DNA from: a virus
Reading direction: 5' to 3' (one strand)
Virus record (IMG/VR): IMGVR_UViG_3300045921_000146
Location: 33,515-97,514 of that record
DNA length: 64,000 nucleotides
Shown here: positions 10,473 to 32,576 of the stretch, piece after piece
Numbering within the stretch: the stretch's first letter is position 1
Layout of the letters: every line of letters begins with the position of its first letter
Notes under the pieces: generated by a model
Told to the model about the DNA's origin: nothing
The model's input: the letters and a program-made list of their open reading frames with translations, nothing else
The model's database searches: none
Translations under genes and position numbers: made by a program

Positions 10473-10698
10473 TTTTGTTTACCTGCTCCAATAAATCTTC
10501 TAAACACATTTTACACGCTTTATGAAATAGTAATTTATCTTTCAGTACAGCTAATTTACTTAATTCTTTTATATCTGGAGATTTGCCCGATGTCAAGTTT
10601 TTTTGTTTTCCGTCCATATTAGCTTGAACCAACATCAATTCTTTTTCGTGCTCGGCAATGTTATTCTTAATAATTTTAATTATTTTAGCCATTTCCAT
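10459..10698 (-). CDS. hypothetical protein
   Basis: GAGG RBS inside the upstream gene. Confidence 0.55.
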   Translation of the reverse strand: MEMAKIIKIIKNNIAEHEKELMLVQANMDGKQKNLTSGKSPDIKELSKLAVLKDKLLFHKACKMCLEDLLEQVNKNETN

Positions 10699-11197
10699 AT
10701 AATACCTCTAAAACTTGAGCTTTTTCAGGCCATTTATGTTTTGCTAAAGTTATACATACCTCTTTAAAAAAATTAGACTCTTCCATACTATCTTCGGTAG
10801 GAGCTATATTCAAGGAATAACTTAAAGTTCCTAGCATATAAAAACCGTCCTCGCCCTTGGCGGCGGAAATTATAGAGTGTACGCAAGATTGAAACAAATG
10901 GAAAAAACCCGTCTCCATTGCAGAAAATTTAGCTCCTAACTCTTCTAATATAGCTAAATCTTTAGTTTTTAGGTAGTTTTCACAGTAATGTGAAACTTCT
11001 TTCATAGCGTTTGAGTACGATCTAAATTGAGATTTCTTAAATATACTTAATAAGATAGTAAATCTTTGCTCTGGCGACAGGGACAATAATAATTTGTGGG
11101 CCGCCTCTTCGTAACGACCCTCCTTGTAAGTTTTCATTAAACTATCAAAATCTTCCCTTTTAGTTTTGTTTTTAAGAACTTGTAGTGCCTTATTCAT
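10685..11197 (-). CDS. hypothetical protein, C-terminal VLYG motif
   Basis: 170 aa, ends EVLYGNG. Confidence 0.6.
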   Translation of the reverse strand: MNKALQVLKNKTKREDFDSLMKTYKEGRYEEAAHKLLLSLSPEQRFTILLSIFKKSQFRSYSNAMKEVSHYCENYLKTKDLAILEELGAKFSAMETGFFHLFQSCVHSIISAAKGEDGFYMLGTLSYSLNIAPTEDSMEESNFFKEVCITLAKHKWPEKAQVLEVLYGNG

Positions 11198-12081
11198 TCA
11201 GACCTCAAAACTTCTGGTATAGAGTAAATAATCTCTGTTTTACCTGCAACTTTAACTTTTTTAACAAACTTATGCCAAGTAACGTTATGTTTTTTAAATA
11301 TAGTATTAACTTTTTCGGAAACAGTGCTGGGACTCAGGTTATATAATTTAGAAACTTCTGTCAAAGTTTTTTTATCTACATACATTTTGTTGAGTAAGTC
11401 TAGGTGTTTGGGTTTTAATTGATGACCTTTTTCAGTCAAAAATTTTCTAACTGCCGCAAATTGGCTCAATCTAGTGAGACTAGAGTAGAAAACATAGGTA
11501 GCATCTTTTTGATTATACAACCCTTCTTCTTTAGCTATAGTTGCGAAGTCTTTTTGCAGGTGTAATCTTTTTTTTACTATTCTTTGTTTTTCTTCTGTTA
11601 GTACGTCCCAAGGCACTTCTTGATCTGTTATGGTGGGTATAGTAAAAGAAGGGTTTTCATCTACATGGGGGTCTAAATTTTCTACTAAAACTACTTCTAC
11701 TTCAGGTTTTTTCCACCTATTTATAAAGTCATTAACTTGACTACAAGTTGCAGTACATTTTTTAACGATTGGGCAAGTATCGCAATTAGACAGGTATAAC
11801 TCGTTATCCTTTATTGTGTGCGTTTCTTTAAGCTTTTCTAAGTAGGGGGCGGCTGTTTCAGATTTCCAAGGTAAAGGGCGGCCCATACACTCTTTACCAA
11901 TGCACACAAACCTCTTAGGGCACTCGTCGTAACTTTCTCCGTAGTGAAAGTTAGCCTCTTCTCGAATCTTAGCTAGTACCTTATTCTGGTCGTCGCCAGT
12001 AATAAATTTAGCCCAAGGAGGCTTAGTACACGCCGCAGGTTTGAATTTAATTTTAAAGTCTTTCTCTTTCATTACAACCAA
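11194..12081 (-). CDS. Cys-rich protein with two sigma-region-4-like HTH repeats; putative transcription factor
   Basis: LTEEKQRIV...KDFATIAKEEG and LKPKHLDLL..MY.DKKTLTEVSKLYNLSPSTVSEKV; N-terminal Cys clusters. Confidence 0.55.
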   Translation of the reverse strand: MVVMKEKDFKIKFKPAACTKPPWAKFITGDDQNKVLAKIREEANFHYGESYDECPKRFVCIGKECMGRPLPWKSETAAPYLEKLKETHTIKDNELYLSNCDTCPIVKKCTATCSQVNDFINRWKKPEVEVVLVENLDPHVDENPSFTIPTITDQEVPWDVLTEEKQRIVKKRLHLQKDFATIAKEEGLYNQKDATYVFYSSLTRLSQFAAVRKFLTEKGHQLKPKHLDLLNKMYVDKKTLTEVSKLYNLSPSTVSEKVNTIFKKHNVTWHKFVKKVKVAGKTEIIYSIPEVLRSE

Positions 12082-12617
12082 CGCAATACGTCTTTACGGT
12101 ATTTTTCTGCATACTCCTGAGTGCTTGAGTGATATCTGGTCCACCAATATTTTTCTTTGCTACCATAAACTCTTTTGTAGGTTCTAAGTATTTTAATAGT
12201 CTGTTCCACGCTGTACTCTAAATCGTTAATTAATCTGTAAGGGTGTAAGTCATAAGCCACTATAGTCTTGTAATTAATTTGACCTATACCAAAATCTCTA
12301 CAAGTATTACCTTCAAAGTATATTAGTCGCTCTAAACCTTTGTTATCAGGTATGTTTACTTCTACTAGACCTTCAGTACAGTTCTTCGCTTTATGATTGT
12401 AAGTAGATTCTTGCATAAAAATAGCAGAAACTAGAAAAGGGTTTATTTCATAGTGAGCAGCTCTACGCCTAATAATAGAAGCTAATTCTTTAGCATAGTT
12501 TTTATTAATTTTGGGATTATTCTTTAAAATGTGGCAATATACTGGAAATTTTTGGCAATCTTCTGCTTGAAGTAGGCCTACTGTAAATAAGCTGAGTATT
12601 AGATTAAGCATAATCAC
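12072..12617 (-). CDS. lytic transglycosylase (SLT domain) with N-terminal signal/anchor
   Basis: LVSAIFMQESTY, DFGIGQIN, RYHS motifs; hydrophobic N-terminus. Confidence 0.85.
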   Translation of the reverse strand: MIMLNLILSLFTVGLLQAEDCQKFPVYCHILKNNPKINKNYAKELASIIRRRAAHYEINPFLVSAIFMQESTYNHKAKNCTEGLVEVNIPDNKGLERLIYFEGNTCRDFGIGQINYKTIVAYDLHPYRLINDLEYSVEQTIKILRTYKRVYGSKEKYWWTRYHSSTQEYAEKYRKDVLRWL

Positions 12618-13098
12618 TCCAATCGGGAGCCTTTCTCCCCGTCCATTGAGGGGGTCTAGCGTCAGTGGACCACCTTGCGTTTAAATACAGCTTATAAGCG
12701 TCTGTAACAGGCGAAATTAATTTGAAGTTAAACCCCTTTCCTTGGTGGGCGGCACAGTTAGCAAAGGTCGTCAGAGGGCCTTCTGGTAAGTTTAAGCGCA
12801 TTTCTAGTAGTTGTTTTAATATGTCGTCGCACTTATGCACCTTACCGTATCGAAAAGTATATTCTTCTGACAAAGCCTTGCCATGAAGCCATAGCCAAGT
12901 CCAATTAGCTCTAGTTTCTCGACACCAAACATTTGAAGGGTGGTTCTTATGAGTACTTTTATAGGGAGCTTTTCCGCCATTTTCGTTAATAGCCGTAGAA
13001 AGCATTTGGCAAGTCTCTAAGACCATCTTCACGACTCTTTTGTCGTCGAGACTTATAGCAGCTTTATGAGGGTCGGTGTCCGTAAAAAATATGTTCAT
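12604..13098 (-). CDS. pyrimidine dimer DNA glycosylase-like protein
   Basis: MNIFFTD.DP..AA..LDDKRVVKMVLETCQMLS, HKNHPSNVW, EYTFRYGKVH. Confidence 0.8.
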   Translation of the reverse strand: MNIFFTDTDPHKAAISLDDKRVVKMVLETCQMLSTAINENGGKAPYKSTHKNHPSNVWCRETRANWTWLWLHGKALSEEYTFRYGKVHKCDDILKQLLEMRLNLPEGPLTTFANCAAHQGKGFNFKLISPVTDAYKLYLNARWSTDARPPQWTGRKAPDWSDYA

Positions 13099-13421
13099 CC
13101 TTCTATTCCATACAGTATTTTAACTGTTGTCAAGTCTTTATCTTTTAAGCTTACAAAGTTAGTATGTTTCCATCCATTACTTTGATTTTGGTCGTCTTTT
13201 TTAATGGGCACTAAGTTCTGCCAAGCCAAGTCTAGGCCTGTTTTATTTTTTATTATTTTAGCTAACTCTTGTTTGCAACCGTTAAAATATTTTCCCCCTA
13301 CAACATAAGTTTTTCCTTTAGTAAAACTTCCCCCATTAAAGCTAATTTCATTACTCTCTGTTTCTAAGCACAAAACTAAATCGCCTCTTTTTAAGTCTAG
13401 TAAATCTTGTAAAGTCATCAT
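13095..13421 (-). CDS. small hypothetical protein, C-terminal ILYG motif
   Basis: LKRGDLVLC...FTKGKTY; ends KILYGIEG. Confidence 0.6.
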   Translation of the reverse strand: MMTLQDLLDLKRGDLVLCLETESNEISFNGGSFTKGKTYVVGGKYFNGCKQELAKIIKNKTGLDLAWQNLVPIKKDDQNQSNGWKHTNFVSLKDKDLTTVKILYGIEG

Positions 13422-13426
13422 CAGTA

Positions 13427-13993
13427 TTATACCTCGTCTGGTATAGTAATAATAGGTATTACTACTTTTTTAGCGTTTTTGCGCCACTTAGTTAAGTATT
13501 GGCCTTTATAGTACCATAAATCAACTTCTCCAAGTATTTCTTCTTCAGTTAAATTTCTACCTAATTGCCTTTCTATTCTCTTAGTAAAAAGAGGGTCGGG
13601 CAGCCTCGATTTATTAGAGGCTATGGGAGGGTATAGCCTGTTAGTGTAGCCACAATGGGTAAGCCCAGTGCCGCCACTTTCAATCGAAACTGCCCAACGC
13701 CAGTAAAGTTCTTGAAATTTATCTTTATCTGACAAAGTATTCATTATTTGATCTTTAGTTTGGTCGTCTGCTTCGTGGTACACTTTACAAAGATTCTCCC
13801 AAGTTTTAAGTAAAGATCCGTCACAATCTAATGCTCCTACTTCATCCACATACAAATTAGAGCCGCACTCTGGACATTTAGCAGTAGCTCGTTTCTTGTT
13901 AAAGTTCTTAGCCTTCTTATGAGGCTTTAGAACTTTAACGGTAACTTGCTGACCGTTAATTTCTTCTATGTATCGACTCAGTTTTTTTCCCAC
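13427..13993 (-). CDS. hypothetical protein with Zn-ribbon
   Basis: CPECG motif; GTG start. Confidence 0.55.
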   Translation of the reverse strand: MGKKLSRYIEEINGQQVTVKVLKPHKKAKNFNKKRATAKCPECGSNLYVDEVGALDCDGSLLKTWENLCKVYHEADDQTKDQIMNTLSDKDKFQELYWRWAVSIESGGTGLTHCGYTNRLYPPIASNKSRLPDPLFTKRIERQLGRNLTEEEILGEVDLWYYKGQYLTKWRKNAKKVVIPIITIPDEV

Positions 13994-13998
13994 AACTA

Positions 13999-15393
13999 CT
14001 ACCTACGGACTTTTTTAGTTACTTCAATCTCTGTTTTAGATCCCCAAGACCAATTAAAGTTTTTAGCATAACTTTTTAGCACAGCCCACATAACAGGATA
14101 ACGAGGCTTTTCAATATCTGAAGAAGACTCCCAACATCCGCCGTCAGTTAAATAGATTAAGCCATCGACGTCCATTTTGTTATTTTTAATGTGCTCGAAC
14201 ACTGGAGCAAATCGAGTGCCTCCTCTACCTTTAACTTGAATTTTCTTTCTTGGGTCAAAATCGTAAACAGCTTGGACTTCTGCGTCACACTCAATAACAG
14301 TAACTTTAACATTTAATTTATGGATTCTATCAATTTCAGCGATGAATTGAGCCAACTCTTCGTCATTTACTGAGCCTGAAGTGTCGATAGCGACTGCTAG
14401 GTGCATTACTGGTAATTTTTGTAGTCCTGGGTAAAGGATACCGTACCTACGATTTCTACGTTTTCTGGTAGACTCTACGAGTATTTCAATTTGTCTAGCT
14501 ACAAATCTTTGCAAGTCTTGTCTCCAGTCTTTGGGTACATGATTAAGAGCTTCTATAGCAGCTTGAACATCGGCAGGTAAATTTCCAATAGCTCTCTGGT
14601 CAGTTTGCTCTACAGCCTTATTAACTACTTCTTTTACTTTTGCTGTAATTTCTTCTTCGCTAGCGTTACCTTGGTGCCACATACTATGGTCGTCAAGTAA
14701 CATACCTTGACCTTGACCACTTTGAGGATTTTTTTCATTTTCTTGACACAAAATCTCATAATAGTACTCAGTGTTTTGTCTGTTCTTAACGCCCTTGATC
14801 TGTTTCTTAAGTTCATCAACTAAAAGGCAGCCAGTTTGAATAGCTTTTCCAGCATTAGGATTAGCTATTTTTTTTGTCGGGTCTTTGGGGTCTTGCATTT
14901 CTTTGTCGTGAACTATAGGATTGCCTTCTTTGTCGAAAATTTTAAAATTCTTAGGTAAATTTGGCAAGTACTCATTGATTGCATAATCTGCCGCTTTATT
15001 AAGCGTACTAGCGTTCATAGCATCTTCAATTTTACTACTGATAGATTTAGGATTTTTCTCATCATAAATTTGCGGCTCTAGGTCTCGAAAACGGACAAAA
15101 TGGTTCATAATTACATGGTGACATTCGTGTTTCAATACTTCTACTCTTTCTTTTAATGTCAATGAACAAAAGAAGTAGGGATTAACAATAAGCGCAATCT
15201 GGTCTCCAGACATTTCCGTACCTGGAGGCATAACTCCTAAAGTGGGAATATCAGTAGTGAACATTCTTTTCATATTAAGCATTAAGTTAGCATAAAAAGG
15301 CTCAGAAAATACCAACTCCATCATAGTCTCTTCAAGAACGTCTTGTGGGTCTTGCTTAATGTCTTGTTCTTCTACTTTCTTTTTCTTTGCCAC
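13999..15393 (-). CDS. HExxH metallopeptidase plus vWA domain protein (DUF2201-like)
   Basis: LKHECHH, NKAADYAIN, MIDAS AIDTSGS, GRGGTRF, YLTDG. Confidence 0.85.
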   Translation of the reverse strand: MAKKKKVEEQDIKQDPQDVLEETMMELVFSEPFYANLMLNMKRMFTTDIPTLGVMPPGTEMSGDQIALIVNPYFFCSLTLKERVEVLKHECHHVIMNHFVRFRDLEPQIYDEKNPKSISSKIEDAMNASTLNKAADYAINEYLPNLPKNFKIFDKEGNPIVHDKEMQDPKDPTKKIANPNAGKAIQTGCLLVDELKKQIKGVKNRQNTEYYYEILCQENEKNPQSGQGQGMLLDDHSMWHQGNASEEEITAKVKEVVNKAVEQTDQRAIGNLPADVQAAIEALNHVPKDWRQDLQRFVARQIEILVESTRKRRNRRYGILYPGLQKLPVMHLAVAIDTSGSVNDEELAQFIAEIDRIHKLNVKVTVIECDAEVQAVYDFDPRKKIQVKGRGGTRFAPVFEHIKNNKMDVDGLIYLTDGGCWESSSDIEKPRYPVMWAVLKSYAKNFNWSWGSKTEIEVTKKVRR

Positions 15394-15421
15394 AAATCCT
15401 CCCAGATTGGCATTTTATTTC

Positions 15422-15450
15422 AATATAAACCCTTTTCTAAAAATTGTCAA
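15422..15450 (-). promoter_or_regulatory. sigma70-type promoter for the vWA gene and downstream operon
   Basis: TTGACA-17 nt-TATATT on minus strand. Confidence 0.65.
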
Positions 15451-15477
15451 ATTAGGCGGCCACATTAGGCCGCCCTC
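15451..15477 (-). terminator. stem-loop after the AAA+ gene
   Basis: GGCGGCC-taatgt-GGCCGCC hairpin, short T run. Confidence 0.5.
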
Positions 15478-15482
15478 AATAA

Positions 15483-16571
15483 TTAATTAATACCTTCAAT
15501 TTCCAATTTACGAGCATCAGCAAACAATTTAAGAAGTTCTTTGCTTTCTTCAATAACTTTGCGTGCAGACTCTTCCATGTAAAGTTCACGGCACAAGGCG
15601 AAAGCTAAATCTTTGGGGATAGCCAACAAGAATTGTCCCAAATTATCTTTTTCTGAAGCTTCAAACTGTTTACCGTTTTGAGTGTACTGTTGAGCCAACT
15701 CAAGAATAGAGTCGCTAGTATATTTAAGCATATCAATACGACCTCCAGTTTTAGCGTTAGAATACTTTTTAATGCGAGCCTTCACATTTTCAAAATTTTC
15801 CACGACTTCTCTAGCCGTGATAGGTTTGTCTTCGCTTTCCAAAGATTTAAGGTATGCTGTGCCAGCCGTTGTGCCTACAAGTCCGCAAATAAGGTCTCTA
15901 CGCAAGTGGACAGGCAGTTTGGCCTTCATAAGCTTGTCTACAGCCTCCCAAGACCGACGAGAAGGGGTCACGCCAAGGTCGTAGGCTTCCAACTCTCCCT
16001 GAAGCATTGCAGGTTGTTCAGAAATGAACTGCACGATAGAAGGGTCAAAACCTTTCTTTTTTGCGTAAGAAAGCCACTCTGTTTTGGAGGGAGCCAATTT
16101 AATCTGACAAAAGCGATCCAAAAAAGCTCGGTCAGAAATATCTGTTACTACATAGTCTTGGGTAGAAGGGTTGGCCGCAGCAATAACTGACCAACCTTTA
16201 GGCAACTTATATTCGTGAAGGCGTTTATCCAATACCAGTTGAAATACAGCTTGCAATACGTCACGGCGGCCACGGTTGATTTCATCAAGAAAAATAACAC
16301 CTTGCGACTCTGGGTCTGTAGGAAACCAAGTAGGCTGCATGAATTTAGTAGCTACTTTTTCTCCTCGCTCATTGACTTTAAAGTCGGCAAGACCTAACAA
16401 GTCTCCAACGTCTTGAGTACCAAGGCGCAAGTCAACAAAGCCTAGTTGATTTTCGTCGCAATACTGCCGAACAGCTTGAGACTTACCCACTCCATGATGC
16501 CCCCATACCAGTACAGCTACTCCAGTTTCTCGGATGAAAGGCAAGCTTTCTTTAAATTGGTTGATATTCAT
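15483..16571 (-). CDS. MoxR-like AAA+ ATPase
   Basis: WGHHGVGKS, DLLGL, IFLDEINR, AAANP, AFLDRF, PSRRSW. Confidence 0.9.
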   Translation of the reverse strand: MNINQFKESLPFIRETGVAVLVWGHHGVGKSQAVRQYCDENQLGFVDLRLGTQDVGDLLGLADFKVNERGEKVATKFMQPTWFPTDPESQGVIFLDEINRGRRDVLQAVFQLVLDKRLHEYKLPKGWSVIAAANPSTQDYVVTDISDRAFLDRFCQIKLAPSKTEWLSYAKKKGFDPSIVQFISEQPAMLQGELEAYDLGVTPSRRSWEAVDKLMKAKLPVHLRRDLICGLVGTTAGTAYLKSLESEDKPITAREVVENFENVKARIKKYSNAKTGGRIDMLKYTSDSILELAQQYTQNGKQFEASEKDNLGQFLLAIPKDLAFALCRELYMEESARKVIEESKELLKLFADARKLEIEGIN

Positions 16572-16601: not shown

Positions 16602-17471
16602 TTACTTTACTTGTTCTTCTTTGTCAACTTGTTCAAGGTATCCCATTCTATACCATCTACTCAAATCAGTAGCAGGTTTTATGCCAAAACTTTCTAATTG
16701 TGATTTCAATACGTTAGGCTTAGGACTGCGAACTATTTCTGTCAACTTTTTAGCCGCTTGTGCGTCACAAATGCCGAATCTAAGGTTTTGTGCTGAAGCT
16801 AGAAACTTAGCAAACTGTTCATTAGTGGCATTTTTTGGTAACTTTTTTCCCCAGAAATATTCAATAAGGAAGGCTATAGAATGCTTATAGTTAGAAAATA
16901 TATTTCGTTTTAGGCTTCCTTCAGAAAAAGGAGACCCCCAAGAACCTCTATAGCCGCCCTTTACTGCATTAAGGACACCCTCATTAATTTTAGAGCCAAA
17001 TACTTTATTTAAAACTTCTTCTGGAGTACCCCCTAACAAATTATTAAAATACTCAGTTCTAGCTTGCTCATCTCTGGTACGAGTAATAGTCATAGTCATA
17101 TTAACTTGTTTAGGAAAAGAATTACTGTTACCTAAAAGTTTAAAAAGTATTTCATTAAAACTTATAGACTTAAATTCTGTTCCACTACCCTCCAGTAAAT
17201 ATTTCTCACCATTCATCAAAACTTCGGATTTAACAAACTCACATTTAGAGTCTATTAAGAAGTGCTCAGGTAGGTAGGAGGTTAACATTGGATTTTGATT
17301 TAGAAACGGAGCATTGGATGTGTAGCTAAATCCGCCCCAACTTAAACGTAATTCAAGGTCAGTAGAAATAGTGGTTGTGTTAGACAAATCCGCATCTAAC
17401 AGTTGTTCAGAATTGTAAGGCACTTGCAACAAATTCATCATGTCTATTTTATTTTTAAGTTCTTCAGTCAA
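16602..17471 (-). CDS. hypothetical protein
   Basis: 289 aa, TTG start with GGAGG RBS. Confidence 0.6.
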   Translation of the reverse strand: MTEELKNKIDMMNLLQVPYNSEQLLDADLSNTTTISTDLELRLSWGGFSYTSNAPFLNQNPMLTSYLPEHFLIDSKCEFVKSEVLMNGEKYLLEGSGTEFKSISFNEILFKLLGNSNSFPKQVNMTMTITRTRDEQARTEYFNNLLGGTPEEVLNKVFGSKINEGVLNAVKGGYRGSWGSPFSEGSLKRNIFSNYKHSIAFLIEYFWGKKLPKNATNEQFAKFLASAQNLRFGICDAQAAKKLTEIVRSPKPNVLKSQLESFGIKPATDLSRWYRMGYLEQVDKEEQVK

Positions 17472-17550
17472 GTGAGACCTCCCTAGTATTATTTTAATAT
17501 ATATAATAAATTTTATATTGTGTATACTAATATTAATTTATATTATATAT

Positions 17551-17589
17551 AATAAGTAATAAAAATTTATTTAATTTTTATTACTTATT
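17551..17589. repeat. perfect 17-bp inverted repeat in an AT-rich island
   Basis: AATAAGTAATAAAAATT-tattt-AATTTTTATTACTTATT. Confidence 0.9.
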
Positions 17590-17690
17590 TATACTATACT
17601 TATGTATTATTTAAAAGCAATTTATATACCATACATAAGTATTTAATAACACTGGTGTCGCCCAAAATATATAGATTAATATTTTTACAC

Positions 17691-17719
17691 TTGACATTAT
17701 TTTTTTGACAGAGTACAGT
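17691..17719 (+). promoter_or_regulatory. sigma70-type promoter
   Basis: TTGACA-17 nt-TACAGT upstream of the lone plus-strand gene. Confidence 0.55.
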
Positions 17720-18181: not shown

Positions 18182-18386
18182 TTACCACCAACCTATCGTG
18201 AGCAAACAAAGTAGGATAAGTAATCCTCTCTAAATTTTTAAGGTCAAACAATTCGTAACTATTACCATAAATAGGATGGTCAGGTACTTGTTGTAAGACC
18301 ATAAAACTTTCCGAGGAAAAGAACTTCTTAGCAGTTTGTTTGACAACTAAGAATTGATTAGGTTTAAAATTAAACACTCTTTCCAT
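18162..18386 (-). CDS. small hypothetical protein
   Basis: GGAGG RBS in the upstream gene. Confidence 0.55.
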   Translation of the reverse strand: MERVFNFKPNQFLVVKQTAKKFFSSESFMVLQQVPDHPIYGNSYELFDLKNLERITYPTLFAHDRLVVNEKIRS

Positions 18387-18612
18387 AAAGAACCTCCGCT
18401 ACATCCTTACGAGTAATTATAGCGCATTTGTCTTCAAGCTTACTTTCATAGTAACGCTTCCACTCGTCGTTAGAACCCTTATTGCTAGTAGGATTCATAA
18501 CCTTGAGAGTGTATAAATTTTGATTTTTAACAAAATCTACAGCGTCAACAAATAAAAATACTTTTTGTTCTTTGTGAAACAGAATGTCTGAAACTTTATA
18601 TTTACTCTTCAT
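18370..18612 (-). CDS. small beta-rich protein, C-terminal VLYG motif
   Basis: KYKVSDILF...EVLYGKSV. Confidence 0.6.
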   Translation of the reverse strand: MKSKYKVSDILFHKEQKVFLFVDAVDFVKNQNLYTLKVMNPTSNKGSNDEWKRYYESKLEDKCAIITRKDVAEVLYGKSV

Positions 18613-19159: not shown

Positions 19160-19423
19160 TTAAAACTCCCAACGCCAATTTAGCCTTTTATTGACTATAA
19201 TCTCATGTATTGCAATACCTGTGCCCACATAAGGCTCAATATCTTTAGGTACATAGCGTTTCTGTAGTCGTTGAACTTTTTTATCTATGTTAAAATGTTT
19301 TACAAAAGCCTCCCCAGCCATAGGTAAAGCTTGGTTACTGCAATGCAGTTCTTGCTCCAGCTCAAAGGTGGGCGTTTTGGCGGCCACTGGAACCATTAAA
19401 ATAAGTGTCAAAATATTAATCAT
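19160..19423 (-). CDS. secreted hypothetical protein
   Basis: Signal peptide; ends WRWEF. Confidence 0.55.
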   Translation of the reverse strand: MINILTLILMVPVAAKTPTFELEQELHCSNQALPMAGEAFVKHFNIDKKVQRLQKRYVPKDIEPYVGTGIAIHEIIVNKRLNWRWEF

Positions 19424-19646
19424 TTTGTTCCTGCATTTTAGAGTAAAGAACTTTAGCTACTTGAGGGTCTACTTTCATATAAGCAATATTGACCATACGT
19501 TTAGGAATGGTTAGTAATTGGTCGTCGCTCTCTCTACGAAGAAATACTTTATGTAAGTCAGTCTTTATAACGAAATATAAGTCTTCGGGATTAGTCTTTT
19601 GGCAAATGTAATCATTTTTTTGTAGGTTTACTTTTAATTTACTCAT
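19416..19646 (-). CDS. small beta-rich protein, C-terminal VLYS motif
   Basis: LQKNDYIC...AKVLYSK. Confidence 0.6.
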   Translation of the reverse strand: MSKLKVNLQKNDYICQKTNPEDLYFVIKTDLHKVFLRRESDDQLLTIPKRMVNIAYMKVDPQVAKVLYSKMQEQND

Positions 19647-21936: not shown

Positions 21937-22500
21937 TTAGTCGTCCCCGAACAGTATCTTCTGTACGTCACTGACAATTTGGCTCTTGGGTATCCAAATA
22001 GGGCCAATAATACCAGCAATTTTGGCCTCTTCTTCAATCTTAGCTATAATTTCTTGAGCCTTGTCTATAGTAGGCCGTTCAATCTTAAAGTATTTCTTAG
22101 CGCAAACAGGGCCAATACCTGTAGCTTTACTAATCTGGTTGTCTAATCCTCTACCGCAACAATGGCAAACAGAAGCTATCTTAGAGCTAAAAGAAACCTT
22201 AACTTGGATAGCTCTGTTACTTTCTGAAACGACCTCTTCAATAACTAAGTTACGAAAAAAGAAAGGTAGCTTTTGAGTTTTAGCAAGACTTTGAGCTAAC
22301 CACTTCCTAATAGTAATAGTTTGCCGTACTTTATAAGTAAACTCTTTGGTAGCCTCTTGCTTGGTAAAGAAATTAACAGCGCATTCTAATTGTTTAGGGG
22401 ATAGTTGGCCGTACTTCTTAGCTTGGTACTTTAAACTCAGGATAAAAGAATTAGAACCTGAGTAATTGCTAAGTTTTTCGAGAGTTTGTTGGTTGTCCAT
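21937..22500 (-). CDS. DUF6011-like Zn-binding protein, C-terminal ILFG motif
   Basis: CHCCGRGLDNQISKATGIGPVC. Confidence 0.65.
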   Translation of the reverse strand: MDNQQTLEKLSNYSGSNSFILSLKYQAKKYGQLSPKQLECAVNFFTKQEATKEFTYKVRQTITIRKWLAQSLAKTQKLPFFFRNLVIEEVVSESNRAIQVKVSFSSKIASVCHCCGRGLDNQISKATGIGPVCAKKYFKIERPTIDKAQEIIAKIEEEAKIAGIIGPIWIPKSQIVSDVQKILFGDD

Positions 22501-22544: not shown

Positions 22545-23012
22545 CTAACGCCAATAGCTTCGATATGACTCCCAATATTTGTCTAAACAGTAGGGCACTG
22601 TCAACATTGAGAACATTAAATTCTGAGGGCAGCCGTCTGGCCGCAAGTCTTCGATATGATAAGGGATTTTAAACTCACAATGGATTAGTTCGTGGTAAAT
22701 TAAAGCCAAACGACTTTGAGTACTCATATAAATCCATTTATTTTCAAGCACTTCCACTTCTGTAAAAGTTTTAGTCGTTACAAAAGGCTGTATTCCTTTC
22801 TTAGCAGTCCAAACTCTACATTGCGCCAGCCTCCTATTCGGTAGGCTTTTAACGAAATTCACTGAGCTACTAACTGTTACGCCGTAATACGCTTCAAAAT
22901 CAGCTACGTAAGGTTTTAAGCTTGGGGCTATACCTACCTGGCCTCTAGGGTCAGGAAACGAACCGCAAGCCGTTAAAAGCGTTAAAAAGGCTAAAAGCGA
23001 CCACTTATTCAT
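22545..23012 (-). CDS. lipoprotein zinc metallopeptidase
   Basis: Lipobox LTAC; YHELIHC (HExxH), downstream H and LM Met-turn-like motif. Confidence 0.7.
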   Translation of the reverse strand: MNKWSLLAFLTLLTACGSFPDPRGQVGIAPSLKPYVADFEAYYGVTVSSSVNFVKSLPNRRLAQCRVWTAKKGIQPFVTTKTFTEVEVLENKWIYMSTQSRLALIYHELIHCEFKIPYHIEDLRPDGCPQNLMFSMLTVPYCLDKYWESYRSYWR

Positions 23013-23259
23013 TTTGGCCTTTCAAAAATAGTATTTTAACCGCTTTAGGTATTTCTGTGGCGGACTCTAAAGGGATAGAGTCATTTTCATAACTTCTCTG
23101 GTAAACTTGATTTTCTGCGCACCAATCTGTTTGACCCCTAAAGTTCTTACATTTAAAATTTTTGGAGCAAAAAACCCTCCTAGCAAGACCATCGTCTAAA
23201 ATTTCATCAATATGATAACCTTCGTCGTAAATCATGATTTTTAACTCATACTTAGACAT
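23005..23259 (-). CDS. hypothetical protein
   Basis: Ends AVKILFLK... Confidence 0.55.
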   Translation of the reverse strand: MSKYELKIMIYDEGYHIDEILDDGLARRVFCSKNFKCKNFRGQTDWCAENQVYQRSYENDSIPLESATEIPKAVKILFLKGQNE

Positions 23260-24060: not shown

Positions 24061-24273
24061 TCATTCAATGCCCCTACTTAATTTATTTTTTTTACCAAAT
24101 CTAGAGCTAGAATTAACTCCCGATTTAGAATTAAACATTGTAATACTCCCAAACAAAGACCTAGACGCACAAATAGACCAAGATTTATAGGTAGTTATGG
24201 ACCTTGGTTTAACTCCAGTTTTAGATTTATAATTTGAATACATATATTGTGGTAGTTTATTATAGTAGTTCAT
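24061..24273 (-). CDS. Ser-rich peptide, copy 3 (degenerate)
   Basis: Start revised to ATG 24273: MNYYNKLPQYMYS... Confidence 0.6.
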   Translation of the reverse strand: MNYYNKLPQYMYSNYKSKTGVKPRSITTYKSWSICASRSLFGSITMFNSKSGVNSSSRFGKKNKLSRGIE

Positions 24274-24274
24274 A

Positions 24275-24475
24275 CTACTTACTTTCCTTACCAGACCTAG
24301 ACCTAGAACCAAACCTAGAACCAGACCAATAATTAGACCAAGAACTAGACCAAGAACTAGACCGAGGCCTAGACCAAGAACTAGACCGAGGCCTAGACCC
24401 AGAACTAGACCCAGACTCAGACCTAGACCTAGAACCTTGATATAACCAATTTGGTAGCTTATTGTAGTAGCTCAT
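24275..24475 (-). CDS. (Ser-X)n repeat peptide, copy 2
   Basis: MSYYNKLPNWLYQGS + SRSESGSSSGSRPRSSSW... + SGKESK. Confidence 0.7.
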   Translation of the reverse strand: MSYYNKLPNWLYQGSRSRSESGSSSGSRPRSSSWSRPRSSSWSSSWSNYWSGSRFGSRSRSGKESK

Positions 24476-24476
24476 A

Positions 24477-24668
24477 CTATCTAGTTTCCTTACCAGACCT
24501 AGAAATAGACCAAGAACTAAACCGAGACCTAGACCCAGACTCAGACCAGCAAGACATAGGCCAAGAGCCAGACCCAGACCCAGACCAAAACCCAGACCAA
24601 GACCTAGACCTAAAACCAGACTTAGAACCTTGATATACCCAACTTGGTAGTTTATTATAGTAGTTCAC
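24477..24668 (-). CDS. (Ser-X)n repeat peptide, copy 1
   Basis: GTG start; MNYYNKLPSWVYQGS + SRSWSGFWSGSGSGSW... + SGKETR. Confidence 0.65.
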   Translation of the reverse strand: MNYYNKLPSWVYQGSKSGFRSRSWSGFWSGSGSGSWPMSCWSESGSRSRFSSWSISRSGKETR

Positions 24669-24717: not shown

Positions 24718-24996
24718 TTAAATAGTAGGCACCAAGCAAATGTCCATAATAAAGCCCGTGTTCTTAAATTCTTTAATGGTCTCAGGGTAAGCCTCGGCCT
24801 CTTTAACGAACTTTTGGGGGTTGGTGAAAAACTGGTGGAGGTCTCCAGTTTGCCCTACCCACTTTACTCCAGTTAAAACTATGTAGCTTTCTTGTACTTC
24901 TAGTAGCGTGCCTAGGTAGTAGTAAGTTGGAGTTCTAACGAAAACTTTAGCTCCTACCTCGAAAACCTGGGCGGCCATACCTACCTTTAAATTCAT
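24718..24996 (-). CDS. DUF6948-like small beta-barrel protein
   Basis: VGAKVFVRTPTYYYLGTL...IVL....WV..TG.L pattern; AGGAGG RBS. Confidence 0.6.
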   Translation of the reverse strand: MNLKVGMAAQVFEVGAKVFVRTPTYYYLGTLLEVQESYIVLTGVKWVGQTGDLHQFFTNPQKFVKEAEAYPETIKEFKNTGFIMDICLVPTI

Positions 24997-26020: not shown

Positions 26021-26242
26021 ATGAGAACACCAAGCATTGAGATTAAGAAGCTTAACTTGCAAAAGGTTGAGATACAATTGGCCGTCTTAGAGCAAAGAAT
26101 TGATGATGCTAAGGCTAAGGTAGCGGACCTAGAGTCTAAACACGACGAAAGACTGGCCCTACTACAAAGCTTGCAAGCGGAACTGAACGGCTTAGTGGCC
26201 TCTAAGACTGAAGACATCCAATCCCCCTTTGGCAAGCAATAA
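26021..26242 (+). CDS. small coiled-coil protein
   Basis: AAGGAG RBS; heptad repeats. Confidence 0.65.
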   Translation: MRTPSIEIKKLNLQKVEIQLAVLEQRIDDAKAKVADLESKHDERLALLQSLQAELNGLVASKTEDIQSPFGKQ

Positions 26243-26250
26243 GCGTGCCA
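26235..26250 (-). promoter_or_regulatory. sigma54-type promoter, antisense to 26021-26242
   Basis: TGGCAC-GCTTA-TTGCT, exact consensus. Confidence 0.55.
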
Positions 26251-26251
26251 A

Positions 26252-26278
26252 GCAGCCCGAAAGGGCTGTTTTTTATTT
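26252..26278 (+). terminator. intrinsic terminator
   Basis: GCAGCCC-gaaa-GGGCTGT + T tract. Confidence 0.8.
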
Positions 26279-26460
26279 GCCTTGGTCCGGACCGATCTAG
26301 CGTAAAGTGTCACCGTCTCAATTTGAGCCGTAAATACGACTATAACTTATACAACTGCCAAACTACTGTAAACACGACTAATTTTCATATTAATACACTT
26401 ATTGACCAAATTATAGCCTATTCTTATATTGATACCTTAATGATTACAATAACTTACAAT

Positions 26461-26476
26461 TGGCAGCAATATTGCT
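26461..26476 (+). promoter_or_regulatory. sigma54-type promoter
   Basis: TGGCAG-CAATA-TTGCT, preceded by IHF-like TTACAATAACTTA. Confidence 0.65.
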
Positions 26477-26504
26477 ACTAATAATAAGCAAAGGAGACCG
26501 TACT

Positions 26505-26645
26505 ATGTATAAGATCATACTAAGTCAAGATAGAACCAGAGCAGTGATTCACTTTGAGACGCATTCAGTTCAGGTTACAGCTACCAATAGTAGCTTGAAT
26601 GTGCTTTATTTACTTGAAACGTTGGGTTTTATTAAACTGAAATAA
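26505..26645 (+). CDS. 46-aa hypothetical protein (start revised to MYKII)
   Basis: AAGGAG RBS. Confidence 0.55.
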   Translation: MYKIILSQDRTRAVIHFETHSVQVTATNSSLNVLYLLETLGFIKLK

Positions 26646-26658
26646 CCGAGGAGATGAT

Positions 26659-27327
26659 ATGCAATATCTAAGTCAAAATGAAAAAATGAAGCGTAGCTCT
26701 ACTGTTTTTGATCTATACAATTGGGGAATCCCGGCCTTCCTAAGCAAGGACGGACTGAAGACCTGTCCCAATGCGAAACACTGCGTCGCAGGTTGTTATG
26801 CAAAGAGCGGTGCTTATCTGTTCTCCAATGTTGCGGCTAAATACGAACAGCGGCTGGGCTTGGCCTTATCTCCGCATTTTGTGGACACTATCAGTCTTGA
26901 TATCGCTAAGGCTTGCAAGACTGCCTCAAAACGAAGCAAGAGTCCCCTCATAAGAGTACACGATAGCGGCGATTTTTTTAGCCTGGACTATACTCTTTCT
27001 TGGTTTAGGGTTATGAAAGCCTTCCCTCACGTTCCCTTTTATGCTTATACGAAGCAAGTCGAGCTTTTAAAGGACTTAAAGAATGCAAATACCATACCCG
27101 ATAACCTCACTCTTATTTACTCTTATGGCGGTAAACAGGATTATTTAATCGACCCGACTAAGGACCGACACTCTAGGGTTTTTGAGACATTAGAGCAAGC
27201 CTTAAAAGAAGGTTACGCCGATGCGTCTCACGATGATACAGTGGCGCTAGGGGAGAATCACCGTATCGGACTAGTATATCACGGAGTGAAGCGGTACGAC
27301 AATACTGCTTGGGATAAGGTGAAATAA
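26659..27327 (+). CDS. Gp88-like (radical-SAM-like CxxxxxCxxxC) phage protein
   Basis: TCPNAKHCVAGCYA, RVHDSGDFFS, FYAYTK. Confidence 0.75.
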   Translation: MQYLSQNEKMKRSSTVFDLYNWGIPAFLSKDGLKTCPNAKHCVAGCYAKSGAYLFSNVAAKYEQRLGLALSPHFVDTISLDIAKACKTASKRSKSPLIRVHDSGDFFSLDYTLSWFRVMKAFPHVPFYAYTKQVELLKDLKNANTIPDNLTLIYSYGGKQDYLIDPTKDRHSRVFETLEQALKEGYADASHDDTVALGENHRIGLVYHGVKRYDNTAWDKVK

Positions 27328-28836: not shown

Positions 28837-28867
28837 ATAGAGTATTGTGTAACAAGTGAGGGACAAG

Positions 28868-29017: not shown

Positions 29018-29021
29018 TTGC

Positions 29022-29048: not shown

Positions 29049-29079
29049 AATAATAACAATAAAACAAAGGAGAGATGAG

Positions 29080-29482: not shown

Positions 29483-29812
29483 TCAAGGGGTATGGTCAGG
29501 TATAGGGTCGGGCTTAAAAACCAACCTGAGCCCTTTTAAAGGGGCGACTTTGTGTTGACTCCCGTACAGGATCATCTCAGTTTTAGTTATAGGCTTAACT
29601 AAACTAATAGGCCAACTATCGTAAGTATTTGTTTTTATTTGTATTATATCTCCGTAGTGAGTTAGTACTGTATATACGCCTTTAAATACGTCTAGTATTA
29701 TTTCTACTCCTACTATCTTTCCTTTTAAAGTTAAACCTAGTACTTGGCCTCGTACGAACTTAGGGGGGGAGTCGGAAGGGGGGTGCTTTAATTTTTCGTT
29801 TTTATTTTTCAT
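29483..29812 (-). CDS. small beta-rich protein with ILYG motif
   Basis: KFVRGQVL...EMILYGS. Confidence 0.55.
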   Translation of the reverse strand: MKNKNEKLKHPPSDSPPKFVRGQVLGLTLKGKIVGVEIILDVFKGVYTVLTHYGDIIQIKTNTYDSWPISLVKPITKTEMILYGSQHKVAPLKGLRLVFKPDPIPDHTP

Positions 29813-29835
29813 CTAGTTCTAAAATTTTAAAAAAA

Positions 29836-30063
29836 TTATTTTTCGGGGTTGCTGTATAGTATTTCAGCTACTGGGTCTACTATTTTAAATCTTTTACTAT
29901 GTATTCTACTAGTACCTACGGTGTAAGTTCTACCTGTGCCTAAGTTTTTTACGTGGTAGCCTATCAAGTATTTGTCTACGTAGTGGTGCCCTGTTATTTG
30001 GTATTCGTACATGGACGTCTTCAAAATCAAACCTACGGGGTATCGGCTAAAGTTTGGGGGCAT
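29836..30063 (-). CDS. small beta-rich protein, C-terminal ILYS motif
   Basis: RYPVGLIL...AEILYSNPEK. Confidence 0.6.
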   Translation of the reverse strand: MPPNFSRYPVGLILKTSMYEYQITGHHYVDKYLIGYHVKNLGTGRTYTVGTSRIHSKRFKIVDPVAEILYSNPEK

Positions 30064-30073
30064 CGTTAAGCCT

Positions 30074-30352
30074 TTAGTCCTCGTCAGGTTGACTTAATTG
30101 GTTTAAGTGTTCTTTTTTTACGTACAAGGTAATTTCTGCTTGAGTCAAGGGTCTAGTTTTAAGGGTAGTTTCTTTTATTGGGAATATTTTGTTCATGGTC
30201 ATTATACTTAGTATTGTAGTTACTGTTTCGTCGTCTACTACTACGAATTCTAATTTTAGTCCTTCTGGTAGTACTTCTACTACCTTACAATAGGTGAACC
30301 CCTTCTCCCCAGGATTTATGGCCGTACGTAGGTCTCCTACCTTAAAGCTCAC
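30074..30352 (-). CDS. small beta-rich protein, TLYV motif
   Basis: FKVGDL...PLTQAEITLYV. Confidence 0.6.
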   Translation of the reverse strand: MSFKVGDLRTAINPGEKGFTYCKVVEVLPEGLKLEFVVVDDETVTTILSIMTMNKIFPIKETTLKTRPLTQAEITLYVKKEHLNQLSQPDED

Positions 30353-30618
30353 TTAGCCTCCGGCCCGTACAGGATAAGTTCAGCGTCAGTAGCCTTTCTA
30401 AACATAGTGTGTACTAAGGCGGTAGCCAATTCTGTACCTACTCCTTGGTAAACCAAACCTGGGTAGGCTACGACGTACCTAGGGACTGGTAGGGTAAATT
30501 TGTCTGTAGGTTGAGGTACGTAGGTAGTCTTTAATACAGTTACCATGAACTCTACGTTTTCTACGTGTACTAGTACGTCTCCAGCTTTAAATAGGAAGTC
30601 AGGGTGCTTTACTTGCAC
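30349..30618 (-). CDS. small beta-rich protein, C-terminal ILYG motif
   Basis: FKAGDVL...ATDAELILYGPEAK. Confidence 0.6.
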   Translation of the reverse strand: MQVKHPDFLFKAGDVLVHVENVEFMVTVLKTTYVPQPTDKFTLPVPRYVVAYPGLVYQGVGTELATALVHTMFRKATDAELILYGPEAK

Positions 30619-30723
30619 GTTGTGGTGCCTCTAAGGGTTGTAGGCCCGGTAGGGAGCAAGGCTTTAACCCGGCGTCGGGGTAGCGCCAGCTCCCTGAAGT
30701 AATGGCCTGAGTACGTTTGAGTG

Positions 30724-31080
30724 TTATTGGCCATTGCGCCGTTCTCTCGATAAAGTAGGGGGAGGGCCGTAAAGGGTGGCAAACGCAGGAGGTACTTCGA
30801 CCAGTTGAAATTCGTAAATAAGACTTTCAAACGAAACTGTTTTAGTTTTTTTACTGCTACAGCTTTTAATTTTAAACCTTTGTTCTAAAGGTTCTCCGGA
30901 AAAGCTGTAGTACGAAAGGTTTTTAGCAAAATACACGTCTTTAATCTCCCAAACCACCCCAGAAGAGAGCCTCAACACTTTAAAATTTCCAGAGGGTCTA
31001 GTGTCAAAAACTCTTTGAAGGTATGCGGTGTAGGCTGCCAGATACGCTTTTAGTTCTTCTGAGTCAAAATAAGTAGGCAT
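30724..31080 (-). CDS. hypothetical protein, TLYG motif (start revised to MPTYF)
   Basis: ATG 31080 lies just after a -10 box; ...FATLYGPP. Confidence 0.55.
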   Translation of the reverse strand: MPTYFDSEELKAYLAAYTAYLQRVFDTRPSGNFKVLRLSSGVVWEIKDVYFAKNLSYYSFSGEPLEQRFKIKSCSSKKTKTVSFESLIYEFQLVEVPPAFATLYGPPPTLSRERRNGQ

Positions 31081-31086
31081 ACCTAA

Positions 31087-31131
31087 AGTATTACAAAACT
31101 TATTGACACCTGTCAACCCTTAAGTTATATT
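31087..31131. promoter_or_regulatory. overlapping divergent sigma70 promoters
   Basis: TTGACAccTGTCAA supplies both -35 boxes; plus -10 TATATT at 17 nt, minus -10 TAATAC/AATACT at 17-18 nt. Confidence 0.65.
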
Positions 31132-31137
31132 TTTTTT

Positions 31138-31332
31138 ATGACCCTAAAAATAGGCGCAGTTTACAGAAATGTGGAGGACTCAAGTTTGTGGGAACTCAAT
31201 AGGGTTCAAGGTAGTAGAGTTTATATTAATCTTTACAATACTTTACCTATGTATTCTATTAAAAGAGTCAGTTTAAAAACCTTTAAAGAAAAATACATAT
31301 TTGATAATATTTATAATATATTATATAAATAA
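31138..31332 (+). CDS. small protein, C-terminal ILYK
   Basis: LKIGAVYR...NILYK; probably leaderless. Confidence 0.55.
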   Translation: MTLKIGAVYRNVEDSSLWELNRVQGSRVYINLYNTLPMYSIKRVSLKTFKEKYIFDNIYNILYK

Positions 31333-31381
31333 TATAATTTATAATAAATATATTAATTATATATAAATAATATATTATATA

Positions 31382-31419
31382 AATAAGTAAAATATATTAT
31401 TAAATATATTTTACTTATT
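31382..31419. repeat. perfect 17-bp inverted repeat in an AT-rich island
   Basis: AATAAGTAAAATATATT-atta-AATATATTTTACTTATT. Confidence 0.9.
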
Positions 31420-31448
31420 ATATTAAATAAATATATACTTTATTAATA

Positions 31449-31476
31449 TTGACTTAATAAGTATATATTATATAAT
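31449..31476 (+). promoter_or_regulatory. sigma70-type promoter
   Basis: TTGACT-16 nt-TATAAT. Confidence 0.6.
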
Positions 31477-31482
31477 AGGCAA

Positions 31483-31743
31483 GTGATGAAAGTTAGAAAA
31501 TTACTAGATGAAGAGATAGAAAAACACGGTAAAGCCTTAATATTAATAAGGAATACCGTATTTTTAGTAGAAATTTATAGACCTTCAGTGCCCATATTAA
31601 ACATCCCAGTTGAGTATTTGATTAGCTATTTTGAGGAGGACGGAACTACTACCCCTAGTATGTATATTGAGGACTTGAGTTTATTTAGTGTGGAATTACA
31701 AGTACTTAGGTTAGACGTTATAAAAAAATTAATAAAAAAATAG
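31483..31743 (+). CDS. hypothetical protein
   Basis: Starts right after the -10 box. Confidence 0.55.
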   Translation: MMKVRKLLDEEIEKHGKALILIRNTVFLVEIYRPSVPILNIPVEYLISYFEEDGTTTPSMYIEDLSLFSVELQVLRLDVIKKLIKK

Positions 31744-31809
31744 GCTAAAAACCCGAAAAGAGTGCCTCCAATATATATAAGTGAGGGGCAAAAATTTCGG
31801 AGGCCAAGC

Positions 31810-32040
31810 ATGAAGCTGCGGTTTATAGAGTACCAGGGAGGTACTTACTTGATTATTGGCTATTCTTATTGTACTTTGTATAGTGACCCTGAATGTTATG
31901 TAGGCTTAGACATTAAGGACATTCAAAGTGTAAAAAGTTTATCCAGTGAAATATTAGGTAAAAATATACCGTTGGCGGCAGCAAAGGAAATTAAAGACCC
32001 TAAAAAACTACGAGTTCTAAGGATACTTTATGGAAAATAG
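31810..32040 (+). CDS. small protein, C-terminal ILYG motif (start revised to MKLRF)
   Basis: GGAGG RBS before ATG 31810; ends RILYGK. Confidence 0.6.
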   Translation: MKLRFIEYQGGTYLIIGYSYCTLYSDPECYVGLDIKDIQSVKSLSSEILGKNIPLAAAKEIKDPKKLRVLRILYGK

Positions 32041-32269
32041 CGCAGAAGCTAAAATTTACAGTTTAGACGAAGTAGTGCTATTTAGAGGCGAAGTGTATAT
32101 AGTAGCTGAAGTCCATATGTTAAATTGGTTCAGTAAAGACCCCTTTGTTTACGGACTTATAAACTATAAGCAACGAAAACAAAAAGAAGTACCCGACGTT
32201 TACGTACGATCTGAGTTTATTAAAAAAGCCTCAGAAGAAGACTTAGTAATGGTGCTATATGGGAAATAG
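32030..32269 (+). CDS. small beta-rich protein, C-terminal VLYG motif
   Basis: YSLDEVVLFRGEVYIV...MVLYGK. Confidence 0.6.
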   Translation: MENSAEAKIYSLDEVVLFRGEVYIVAEVHMLNWFSKDPFVYGLINYKQRKQKEVPDVYVRSEFIKKASEEDLVMVLYGK

Positions 32270-32576
32270 CCCTTTTATTAACACCTTTATAAACGCAGTT
32301 TTAGAGCGTTTGGTAGAAACTGACCAAGAATCTAAAAAGAAATTTGAAACGGGAGCTAGGTTATTTGATTTTGTGCCTGGGGATTACGTGCAATGCTCCT
32401 ACCGAAAAGGACTTTTTAAAGTTTACGGTATAAACAAAGATAAGCTTTTAGTGGTAGAGGTTACAGAACAGAAATTAAAAAATACTACTCAAGAAGTTTT
32501 AGAACTTAGCCCCAAGTTTGTTAAACTTAGCAATCTAGACTCAAATTGGGTTAAGGCTTTATACGATACAAAATAA
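32259..32576 (+). CDS. small protein, C-terminal ALYD motif
   Basis: FVPGDYVQ...WVKALYDTK. Confidence 0.6.
   Translation: MGNSPFINTFINAVLERLVETDQESKKKFETGARLFDFVPGDYVQCSYRKGLFKVYGINKDKLLVVEVTEQKLKNTTQEVLELSPKFVKLSNLDSNWVKALYDTK

Follow-up and report, generated by a model that had tools for sequence, protein, structure and literature searches.

The DNA analysed here, called the window in the following, is a stretch of 64,000 nucleotides (nt) that covers bases 33515-97514 of the 97.5-kb IMG/VR virus record IMGVR_UViG_3300045921_000146, for which a completeness of 85 % is estimated, and the subject of this work is a short Leu-Tyr motif that recurs near the C-terminus of many of its small proteins. 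Positions are window coordinates unless marked as genome or L0xx coordinates. The record belongs to a tailed phage encoding a terminase, a portal and a major capsid protein, whose TerL is at most 27 % identical to those of INPHARED phages, so that it has no cultured close relative. A sequence-only reading of the window had listed 15 near-terminal motifs in open reading frames (ORFs) with otherwise dissimilar products, and all 15 of them were found in ORFs at their positions, the one labelled 31810 belonging to the ORF at 31762-32040. These ORFs, called carriers where the motif lies 1-7 residues before the stop, are the following, with lengths in amino acids (aa).

10685-11197, minus strand: carrier of 170 aa ending AQVLEVLYGNG; alpha-helical body, not a barrel
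13095-13421, minus strand: carrier of 108 aa ending TTVKILYGIEG; first strand LKRGDLV
18370-18612, minus strand: carrier of 80 aa ending VAEVLYGKSV; first strand YKVSDIL
19416-19646, minus strand: carrier of 76 aa ending VAKVLYSKMQEQND; Tyr codon TAC
21937-22500, minus strand: carrier of 187 aa ending VQKILFGDD; DUF6011 zinc-ribbon-like domain at residues 111-137
23005-23259, minus strand: carrier of 84 aa ending AVKILFLKGQNE
29483-29812, minus strand: ORF of 109 aa with a non-terminal motif, TKTEMILYG plus 26 more residues; Tyr codon TAC
29836-30063, minus strand: carrier of 75 aa ending VAEILYSNPEK; Tyr codon TAC
30074-30352, minus strand: ORF of 92 aa with QAEITLYV plus 15 residues; first strand FKVGDL; Tyr codon TAC
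30349-30618, minus strand: carrier of 89 aa ending DAELILYGPEAK; first strand FKAGDVLV; Tyr codon TAC
30724-31116, minus strand: ORF of 130 aa with PPAFATLYG plus 14 residues; Tyr codon TAC
31138-31332, plus strand: carrier of 64 aa ending NILYK; first strand LKIGAVY
31762-32040, plus strand: carrier of 92 aa ending LRVLRILYGK; ortholog family F1, with the motif kept in 11 of 11 genomes that have a member
32030-32269, plus strand: carrier of 79 aa ending DLVMVLYGK; family F2; the protein modelled below
32259-32576, plus strand: carrier of 105 aa ending NWVKALYDTK; family F3; N-terminal helix followed by a FVPGDYV barrel; Tyr codon TAC

Occurrence of the motif and selection on the protein

Twelve of the listed motifs are indeed near-terminal, at 1-7 residues before the stop, and the three at 29483, 30074 and 30724 lie deeper, with 26, 15 and 14 residues after the Tyr. 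Four additional carriers were found upstream of the window (genome coordinates 13905-14201, 14296-14574, 14555-14899 and 16712-16954), and about one in eight genes of the phage carries the motif, with hundreds more carriers in its relatives. The consensus reads (T/S/D)-(E/P/D)-(A/T/L)-(A/L/I)-(K/E/R)-(V/I/L/T)-L-(Y/F)-(G, else K/S/D/E) with 1-6 residues after it, and would correspond to a complete short helix that starts with an N-cap, has a broad hydrophobic face and is in many cases closed by a Gly C-cap. Leu is the sole invariant column across 129 carriers, and in one ortholog alignment only Leu and Tyr/Phe are invariant apart from Met1. The Tyr/Phe is essentially never the final residue.

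Enrichment over shuffled C-termini was confirmed for the whole 97.5-kb record, in which the pattern [IVLTAM]L[YF][GS] occurs within 12 residues of the C-terminus in 12 genes, compared to 0.79 expected from 2000 per-protein shuffles (maximum 6). As this pattern was defined post hoc, after inspection of the data, more weight is given to independent related and outgroup loci. Among TerL-anchored loci, 25 of the clade (TerL 66-73 % identical) and 25 of the outgroup (TerL 22-27 %), the motif was found 1-7 residues from the C-terminus in 143 of 806 clade ORFs versus 7 of 502 outgroup ORFs. A position matrix built from the carriers places 166 of 994 clade ORFs above the 99th percentile of the outgroup, versus 5 of 490 outgroup ORFs. 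The same enrichment is seen in two clade contigs from metagenome-assembled genomes (MAGs), one of which holds 17 consecutive carriers, and carriers stand in tandem arrays of up to this size. The motif thus marks one entire phage clade, and within it the carriers are accessory genes: none of the 63 genes with recognisable functions common to G000 and G001 is a carrier, and core proteins showed no motif at the C-terminus and no conserved internal copy.

At the codon level, the Tyr codon is TAC in the seven ORFs so marked above, and TAT-GG supplies the ATG of the next gene at 10685, 18370, 31762 and 32030, both as described earlier. At 18370, the TAT-GG containing this ATG is preceded by a GGAGG within the A-E-V codons, and the G001 ortholog of this carrier ends NLYL. 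Across the 143 clade carriers the motif Tyr is encoded by TAT in 84 and by TAC in 29 cases, and the Leu uses all six of its codons. The ATG or TTG of the next ORF falls inside the Tyr/Phe codon plus the next base in 66 of the 143, often after a Shine-Dalgarno-like run in the E/K-V codons; Shine-Dalgarno-like 4-mers were found upstream in 35 of these 66 and in 22 of the 77 others. The mean motif score is nevertheless 13.4 with and 13.7 without an overlapping start, and the motif is retained where the next gene begins 10 to more than 100 nt downstream. As the motif is equally strong in both situations, dual coding adds some bias at positions -1, 0 and +3 but is not the source of the motif.

With profiles built from the bodies alone, members of five ortholog families were detected in up to 11 genomes; all of these members keep the motif, with one doubtful case, and orthologs retain it regardless of gene overlap, so that no loss was found in those lacking the overlap. 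The use of six Leu codons together with the equal motif scores supports the earlier proposal that selection acts on the protein rather than on the DNA or the overlap. The same free codon variation rules out a DNA-level element or gene conversion as source of the motif.

Fold of the carriers and the preferred explanation

Most carriers are beta-rich proteins of 65-115 aa, and a crude propensity count classes 107 of 134 carrier bodies as strand-rich. A first strand resembling (F/Y)-K-x-G-D, a turn that had been noticed in many of the bodies, is present in 62 of 137 carriers (45 %) versus 67 of 463 non-carriers (14 %), at a median of 70 residues before the motif. Since 104 carriers fall into 90 BLAST clusters, the earlier description of the bodies as small SH3/KOW-like barrels that are mutually unalignable agrees with clustering, first strand and structural model alike. 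A Pfam scan of 129 carriers gave no family match except one DUF6011 and two marginal matches, a PHROGs scan of ten window carriers gave DUF6011-type matches only, and a word-indexed homolog search with one carrier returned the query alone. Iterated profiles merge several ortholog groups into one family, and a profile search of 1.84 billion representatives yielded about 75 small full-length homologs; 60 of these were retrieved, every one of them with the motif at its end. The large profile hits are CBM_5_12 repeat proteins, which match only profile positions of about 7-30 (the G-D-Y-V...Y hairpin). An identity as CBM_5_12 module was rejected, as only this first hairpin and not the full module of about 40 residues is matched and the carriers are without a Pfam CBM hit.

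Structure prediction covered one family, represented by the 79-aa carrier at 32030. From an alignment of 5 sequences, AlphaFold2 returned a barrel with a low-confidence tail (predicted local distance difference test score, pLDDT, of 49 in the tail block). With 61 sequences the mean pLDDT rose to 88.6, and the motif forms a helix at residues 69-77 in a block of pLDDT 84, following the strands assigned by DSSP at 15-18, 21-30, 39-45 and 57-60. G13, Y41 and L76 are near-invariant in this family, which indicates joint conservation of barrel core and helix; beyond Y41, no conserved aromatic cluster that could hint at an aromatic cage for methyl-lysine or methyl-arginine is evident. An exhaustive structural comparison with VIA-align gave the chromo-barrels of MRG701 (5IN1) and MRG15 (2F5K) as best matches, with a Z-score of 7.7 and 64-68 aligned residues. 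These alignments span model residues 5/9-79 and hence include the motif helix. Tudor, PWWP, HspQ and SPbeta YorP (2HEQ, Z 5.9) came next. As modelled, the protein would have the make-up of a chromo-barrel/Tudor-like fold, that is an SH3-like barrel with a packing C-terminal helix, at middling Z-scores. Foldseek on the shallow model gave weak Tudor/chromo matches and a DUF1653 phage protein among the BFVD matches. The family profile found nothing significant among the PDB sequences. Prediction of a homodimer from two copies of the 79-aa carrier scored 0.01, which bears neither way on binding.

We regard it as the best explanation, with a probability of roughly 55 %, that the motif is the capping C-terminal helix of one hugely expanded and fast-diverging superfamily of chromo-barrel-like miniproteins spread by tandem duplication. 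Such chromo-barrel/Tudor/SH3-like proteins of 65-115 aa would be a hallmark of this one clade of uncultivated phages of about 100 kb. The motif would form a short amphipathic helix packing on the barrel as the C-terminal helix of a chromo-barrel does, and the helix consensus (T/S/D)-(E/P)-(A/T)-(A/L)-(K/E)-(V/I/L)-L-(Y/F)-(G/polar) can be read as N-cap, hydrophobic face and frequent Gly C-cap. Leu and Tyr/Phe, which we infer from the model to be buried, would be kept as fold-critical residues while the remaining sequence diverges beyond recognition, presumably because every paralog meets a different target. The family probably arose by duplication and may have grown in tandem, and the start of the next gene inside the Tyr-Gly codons of nearly half of the genes would be a secondary use of the motif rather than its cause. 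As to function, host takeover or anti-defence binders would be our guess.

This bears on two statements made together with the original tag proposal. The combination of variable domains with a separate modular tag does not hold as it was worded, given that at least 80 % of the carriers belong to one beta-rich fold class and AlphaFold places the motif helix confidently. The counter-possibility named at the time, a buried structural element of one fold, gains from the model's confident placement of the helix at the chromo-barrel helix site, where Leu and Tyr would be buried.

Compared with the chromo-barrel/Tudor "Royal family" (MRG15, 2F5K; MRG701, 5IN1), the carriers would have in common a small beta-barrel capped by a C-terminal alpha-helix. 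They differ in that there is no sequence similarity and that the known chromo-barrels read chromatin in eukaryotes, whereas here tandem arrays of stand-alone phage miniproteins are found. SPbeta YorP of B. subtilis (2HEQ) and DUF1653 are likewise stand-alone, phage-encoded beta-barrels of 60-90 aa, with unknown function, although to our knowledge neither family fills 10-20 % of a genome or shares an invariant C-terminal Leu-Tyr helix. The RXLR WY-domain effectors of oomycetes and the MAX effectors are big paralog families in which a couple of hydrophobic core residues are conserved under diversified surfaces; they have another fold and occur in other organisms, and in the carriers it is a terminal helix with genome-specific flavours that holds the conserved residues.

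If the structural explanation holds, the carriers constitute an undescribed and very large phage miniprotein family without Pfam or PHROG model, represented in public data by at least 75 clusters (50 % identity). A two-residue signature that outlasts sequence divergence could then be used to recognise otherwise orphan genes, and the family would illustrate cleanly how small phage binders evolve by birth and death.

Flavours of the motif and alternative explanations

Several observations weigh against a purely structural helix. The body-only profile of the modelled family reaches just 18-22 of 134 carriers, so a single origin of all carriers is not demonstrated, and the structural Z-scores stay below 8. 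The motif also ends proteins of other kinds. The 170-aa protein at 10685-11197 is alpha-helical, with a motif score of 13.0 compared to an outgroup maximum of 9.9 and with TPR/HEAT-like neighbours in the ESM Atlas (low-confidence model), and the syntenic G001 protein of 185 aa, dissimilar in sequence, ends EMLESLYL as well. Further cases are the DUF6011 protein at 21937 and a Cys-rich protein of 114 aa. Finally, the motif comes in flavours that appear to be maintained by selection and are shared by the carriers of one genome but vary from genome to genome; a purely intramolecular role does not predict such within-genome uniformity. In the present genome as well as in L005 and L007 the flavour is [VI]LYG plus 2-6 residues. 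L034-L038 have Ala at position 0, L/I/M before the Tyr and a tail of 1-2 residues (A-[L/I/M]-Y-[E/L]), the Ala being found in 15 of 19 carriers versus 4 of 70 elsewhere (p = 3e-10). Trp occurs at -3/-2 in 5 of 5 carriers of L012, and E-x-x-x-LLY in 17 of 17 carriers of L071, which form the most uniform array seen in the clade.

L071, MAG contig CAZFPB010000004.1, 3601-8830, plus strand: 17 consecutive genes of 65-125 aa upstream of the terminase, all ending (T/N/D)-E-x-x-x-L-L-Y-x(0-3)

The first Leu of the LLY in this array is encoded by all six codons, a spread that excludes recent gene conversion and speaks for selection on this Leu in the genome concerned. In old ortholog families, moreover, the members adopt the flavour of their resident genome. 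Limits apply to the flavours as an argument, as the carriers of L034-L038 are largely one detectable paralog family and both the loss of Gly at +3 and the shorter tails follow lower G+C. A lineage-specific expansion from one founder, combined with intramolecular epistasis, could mimic co-evolution with a reader.

The strongest alternative, which we consider possible but on balance doubtful, is a shared docking or address tag, by which one phage or host partner grips all carriers at the C-terminal helix and handles their variable bodies as a class, be it for delivery to a protease or clearance by it, for recruitment of bound host targets to this protease or for loading at one site. It remains a live alternative because of the genome-specific flavours (LLY in 17 of 17, A-[LIM]-Y-[E/L], Trp at -3/-2 in L012, and old families taking on the resident flavour) and the non-barrel carriers. 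The position at no more than about 7 residues from the C-terminus, with the Tyr almost never last, and the invariance of Leu and Tyr/Phe beside Met1 alone, with Leu as the sole invariant over 129 carriers, are also in its favour. Precedents exist in the clamp-binding C-terminal epitopes of T4, which are interchangeable among gp43, gp55 and gp33 (PMC2988020), and in the C-terminal helix of LarA, which together with a 5-residue tail makes up a transferable Lon degron (PMC10665427). Like the motif, the T4 epitope is a short hydrophobic C-terminal peptide on unrelated proteins that one partner reads, but it is confined to three T4 proteins, and here the replication proteins (a 759-aa polymerase-like protein, primase-helicase, ligase, exonuclease, UDG, ERF and RecA-like protein) are without the motif.

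On the other side, no common reader of the carriers was found, and the core proteins are without the motif. For a gp45-type clamp, PF09116 gave no match at E<=1 in the 97.5-kb record, which is an estimated 85 % complete, and a host clamp could serve in its place. The deep-alignment model places the helix confidently rather than leaving it floppy, and most carriers belong to one fold class, so that shared ancestry and lineage-specific expansion can explain much of the flavour uniformity, a part of which (Gly loss at +3, shorter tails) follows lower G+C. A capsid-docking tail of the scaffold type was rejected: the protein in scaffold position (39130-40077) ends GQPNSAFKTR, and its G001 and G002 orthologs end essentially the same. 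A literature search on HbYX in phages or on shared C-terminal motifs of early proteins found nothing relevant.

Rather unlikely, in our view, is the broader form of this idea, in which the Leu-Tyr helix would be a clade-wide address label and a tenth to a fifth of the genes would be variable small binders plugging into one reader. A protease or remodelling machine could act as this reader, for example host Lon, the phage ClpP or the pair of MoxR and DUF2201 peptidase; by analogy, these phage proteins or a host AAA+ protease are conceivable readers. Co-evolution of reader and label would explain why a flavour (LLY, [VI]LYG, A[LIM]Y[E/L] or Trp at -3) is common to every paralog in a genome. If true, the label would be a bacterial-virus counterpart of the ankyrin/F-box-like adaptor families of poxviruses. 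Should the tag explanation in general hold, a short portable peptide would mark out an entire class of phage proteins that one machine handles, and would give a functional handle on dozens of orphan genes together. The phage genes in question are:

804-1607, minus strand: cytoplasmic ClpP paralog with a C-terminal extension of about 70 residues, basic then acidic
Genome 26068-26907 = L016:12269-13108, minus strand: upstream ClpP-family paralog starting with a signal-peptide-like segment, MIKFILSAVLTFTASVCLG
13999-15393, minus strand: DUF2201 protein with an HExxH peptidase-like and a vWA-like domain
15483-16571, minus strand: MoxR-type AAA+ protein (AAA_5), adjoining the DUF2201 protein

Improbable is a narrower version of the tag, in which an AAA+ protease (host Lon or ClpXP, the phage ClpP, or the MoxR/DUF2201 pair) would recognise the helix as degron or as allosteric handle, so that the accessory proteins would have short lifetimes or would modulate or saturate this protease. 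Besides the phage-encoded ClpP, MoxR-type AAA+ and DUF2201 proteins, two Lon substrates speak for it: the degron Sul20, the C-terminus of SulA, ends NLYH with Y19 and H20 being decisive (PMC8087443), and LarA, a Lon activator of 89 aa, has its transferable degron in a C-terminal helix with a short tail (PMC10665427). Sul20 thus has a Leu-Tyr near its C-terminus, and LarA is a small protein of the same general layout. The resemblance is, however, limited to two or three residues, and the tails after the Tyr are polar here, whereas both degrons require a hydrophobic tail or a terminal His. Furthermore, Sul20 and LarA each concern one protein, in contrast to dozens of carriers per genome. Similarly, the HbYX motif and the C-terminal LYG of p97 have a hydrophobic residue followed by Tyr near the C-terminus, but the analogy drawn earlier to HbYX fails on position. 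HbYX requires a penultimate Tyr, whereas tails here are 1-6 residues long; the Tyr is penultimate in 1 of 18 carriers of the genome, with tails of 2-6 in the others, and across the clade a tail of 1 residue after the Tyr/Phe is found in about a fifth of the carriers.

The overlapping start codon as main driver, where the 3' end of a gene holds ribosome-binding site and start of the following one (GAGGT-N5-6-ATG-G) and is read as E-V-L-Y-G in the upstream frame, is very improbable and was rejected, since despite the 66 overlapping starts, their Shine-Dalgarno-like 4-mers and the four clear window cases the motif scores are equal, the invariant Leu lies in an unconstrained spacer and uses all six codons, the TAC of 29 of the 143 carriers cannot yield an ATG, and the motif persists where the next gene begins further downstream.

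Further features of the phage genome

Besides its structural genes, the genome encodes an ATP-dependent ligase, ERF, a PD-(D/E)XK nuclease, UDG, a dUTPase, a RecA-like protein and resolvases as well as an intein-bearing primase-helicase, ThyX and ribonucleotide reductase. The inteins, consisting of Hint and LAGLIDADG homing endonuclease, split the primase-helicase (4258-7308, minus strand), ThyX (L016:3616-4884, minus strand) and the class II ribonucleotide reductase (L016:8247-11054, minus strand). A phage peptide deformylase and a peptidoglycan lytic transglycosylase point to a bacterial host, as judged from the gene content. L070-L073 are clade contigs, two of them of 113-119 kb, which stand in MAG bins of conflicting label (Ignavibacteriaceae, Pseudobdellovibrionaceae and Saccharibacteria), and these labels are probably binning artefacts.

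Both ClpP-family paralogs lie outside the head module, and no protease gene was recognised within it. Between terminase and portal, a low-complexity head-module protein of 92 aa (36138-36416, plus strand) ends MLYKKKK. It was dropped as a carrier: its orthologs have GFLG and a basic tail in common with the Leu-Tyr mostly absent, so that the ending is a chance look-alike of the motif. The MoxR/DUF2201 pair (13999-16571, minus strand) is conserved in G001, where the DUF2201 protein has 798 aa. At 11194-12081 (minus strand), a protein of 295 aa weakly matches sigma-factor/HTH regulator families at its C-terminus (PHROGs, E ~3e-4) and may be a phage transcription factor; its G001 ortholog has 179 aa.

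The extremely AT-rich intergenic regions at the strand switches 31330-31490 and 17472-17704 have a palindromic element in common. It consists of AATAAGTAAAATATA and, separated from it by a few bases (5 in one copy), TATATTTTACTTAT, was also recovered as a self-inverted repeat, and could serve as bidirectional promoter/operator or as origin. At 24061-24668 (minus strand), three small ORFs with high Ser, Arg and Trp contents stand in tandem, all beginning M-x-YYNKLP, and are preceded by a barrel-like ORF of 92 aa at 24718-24996.

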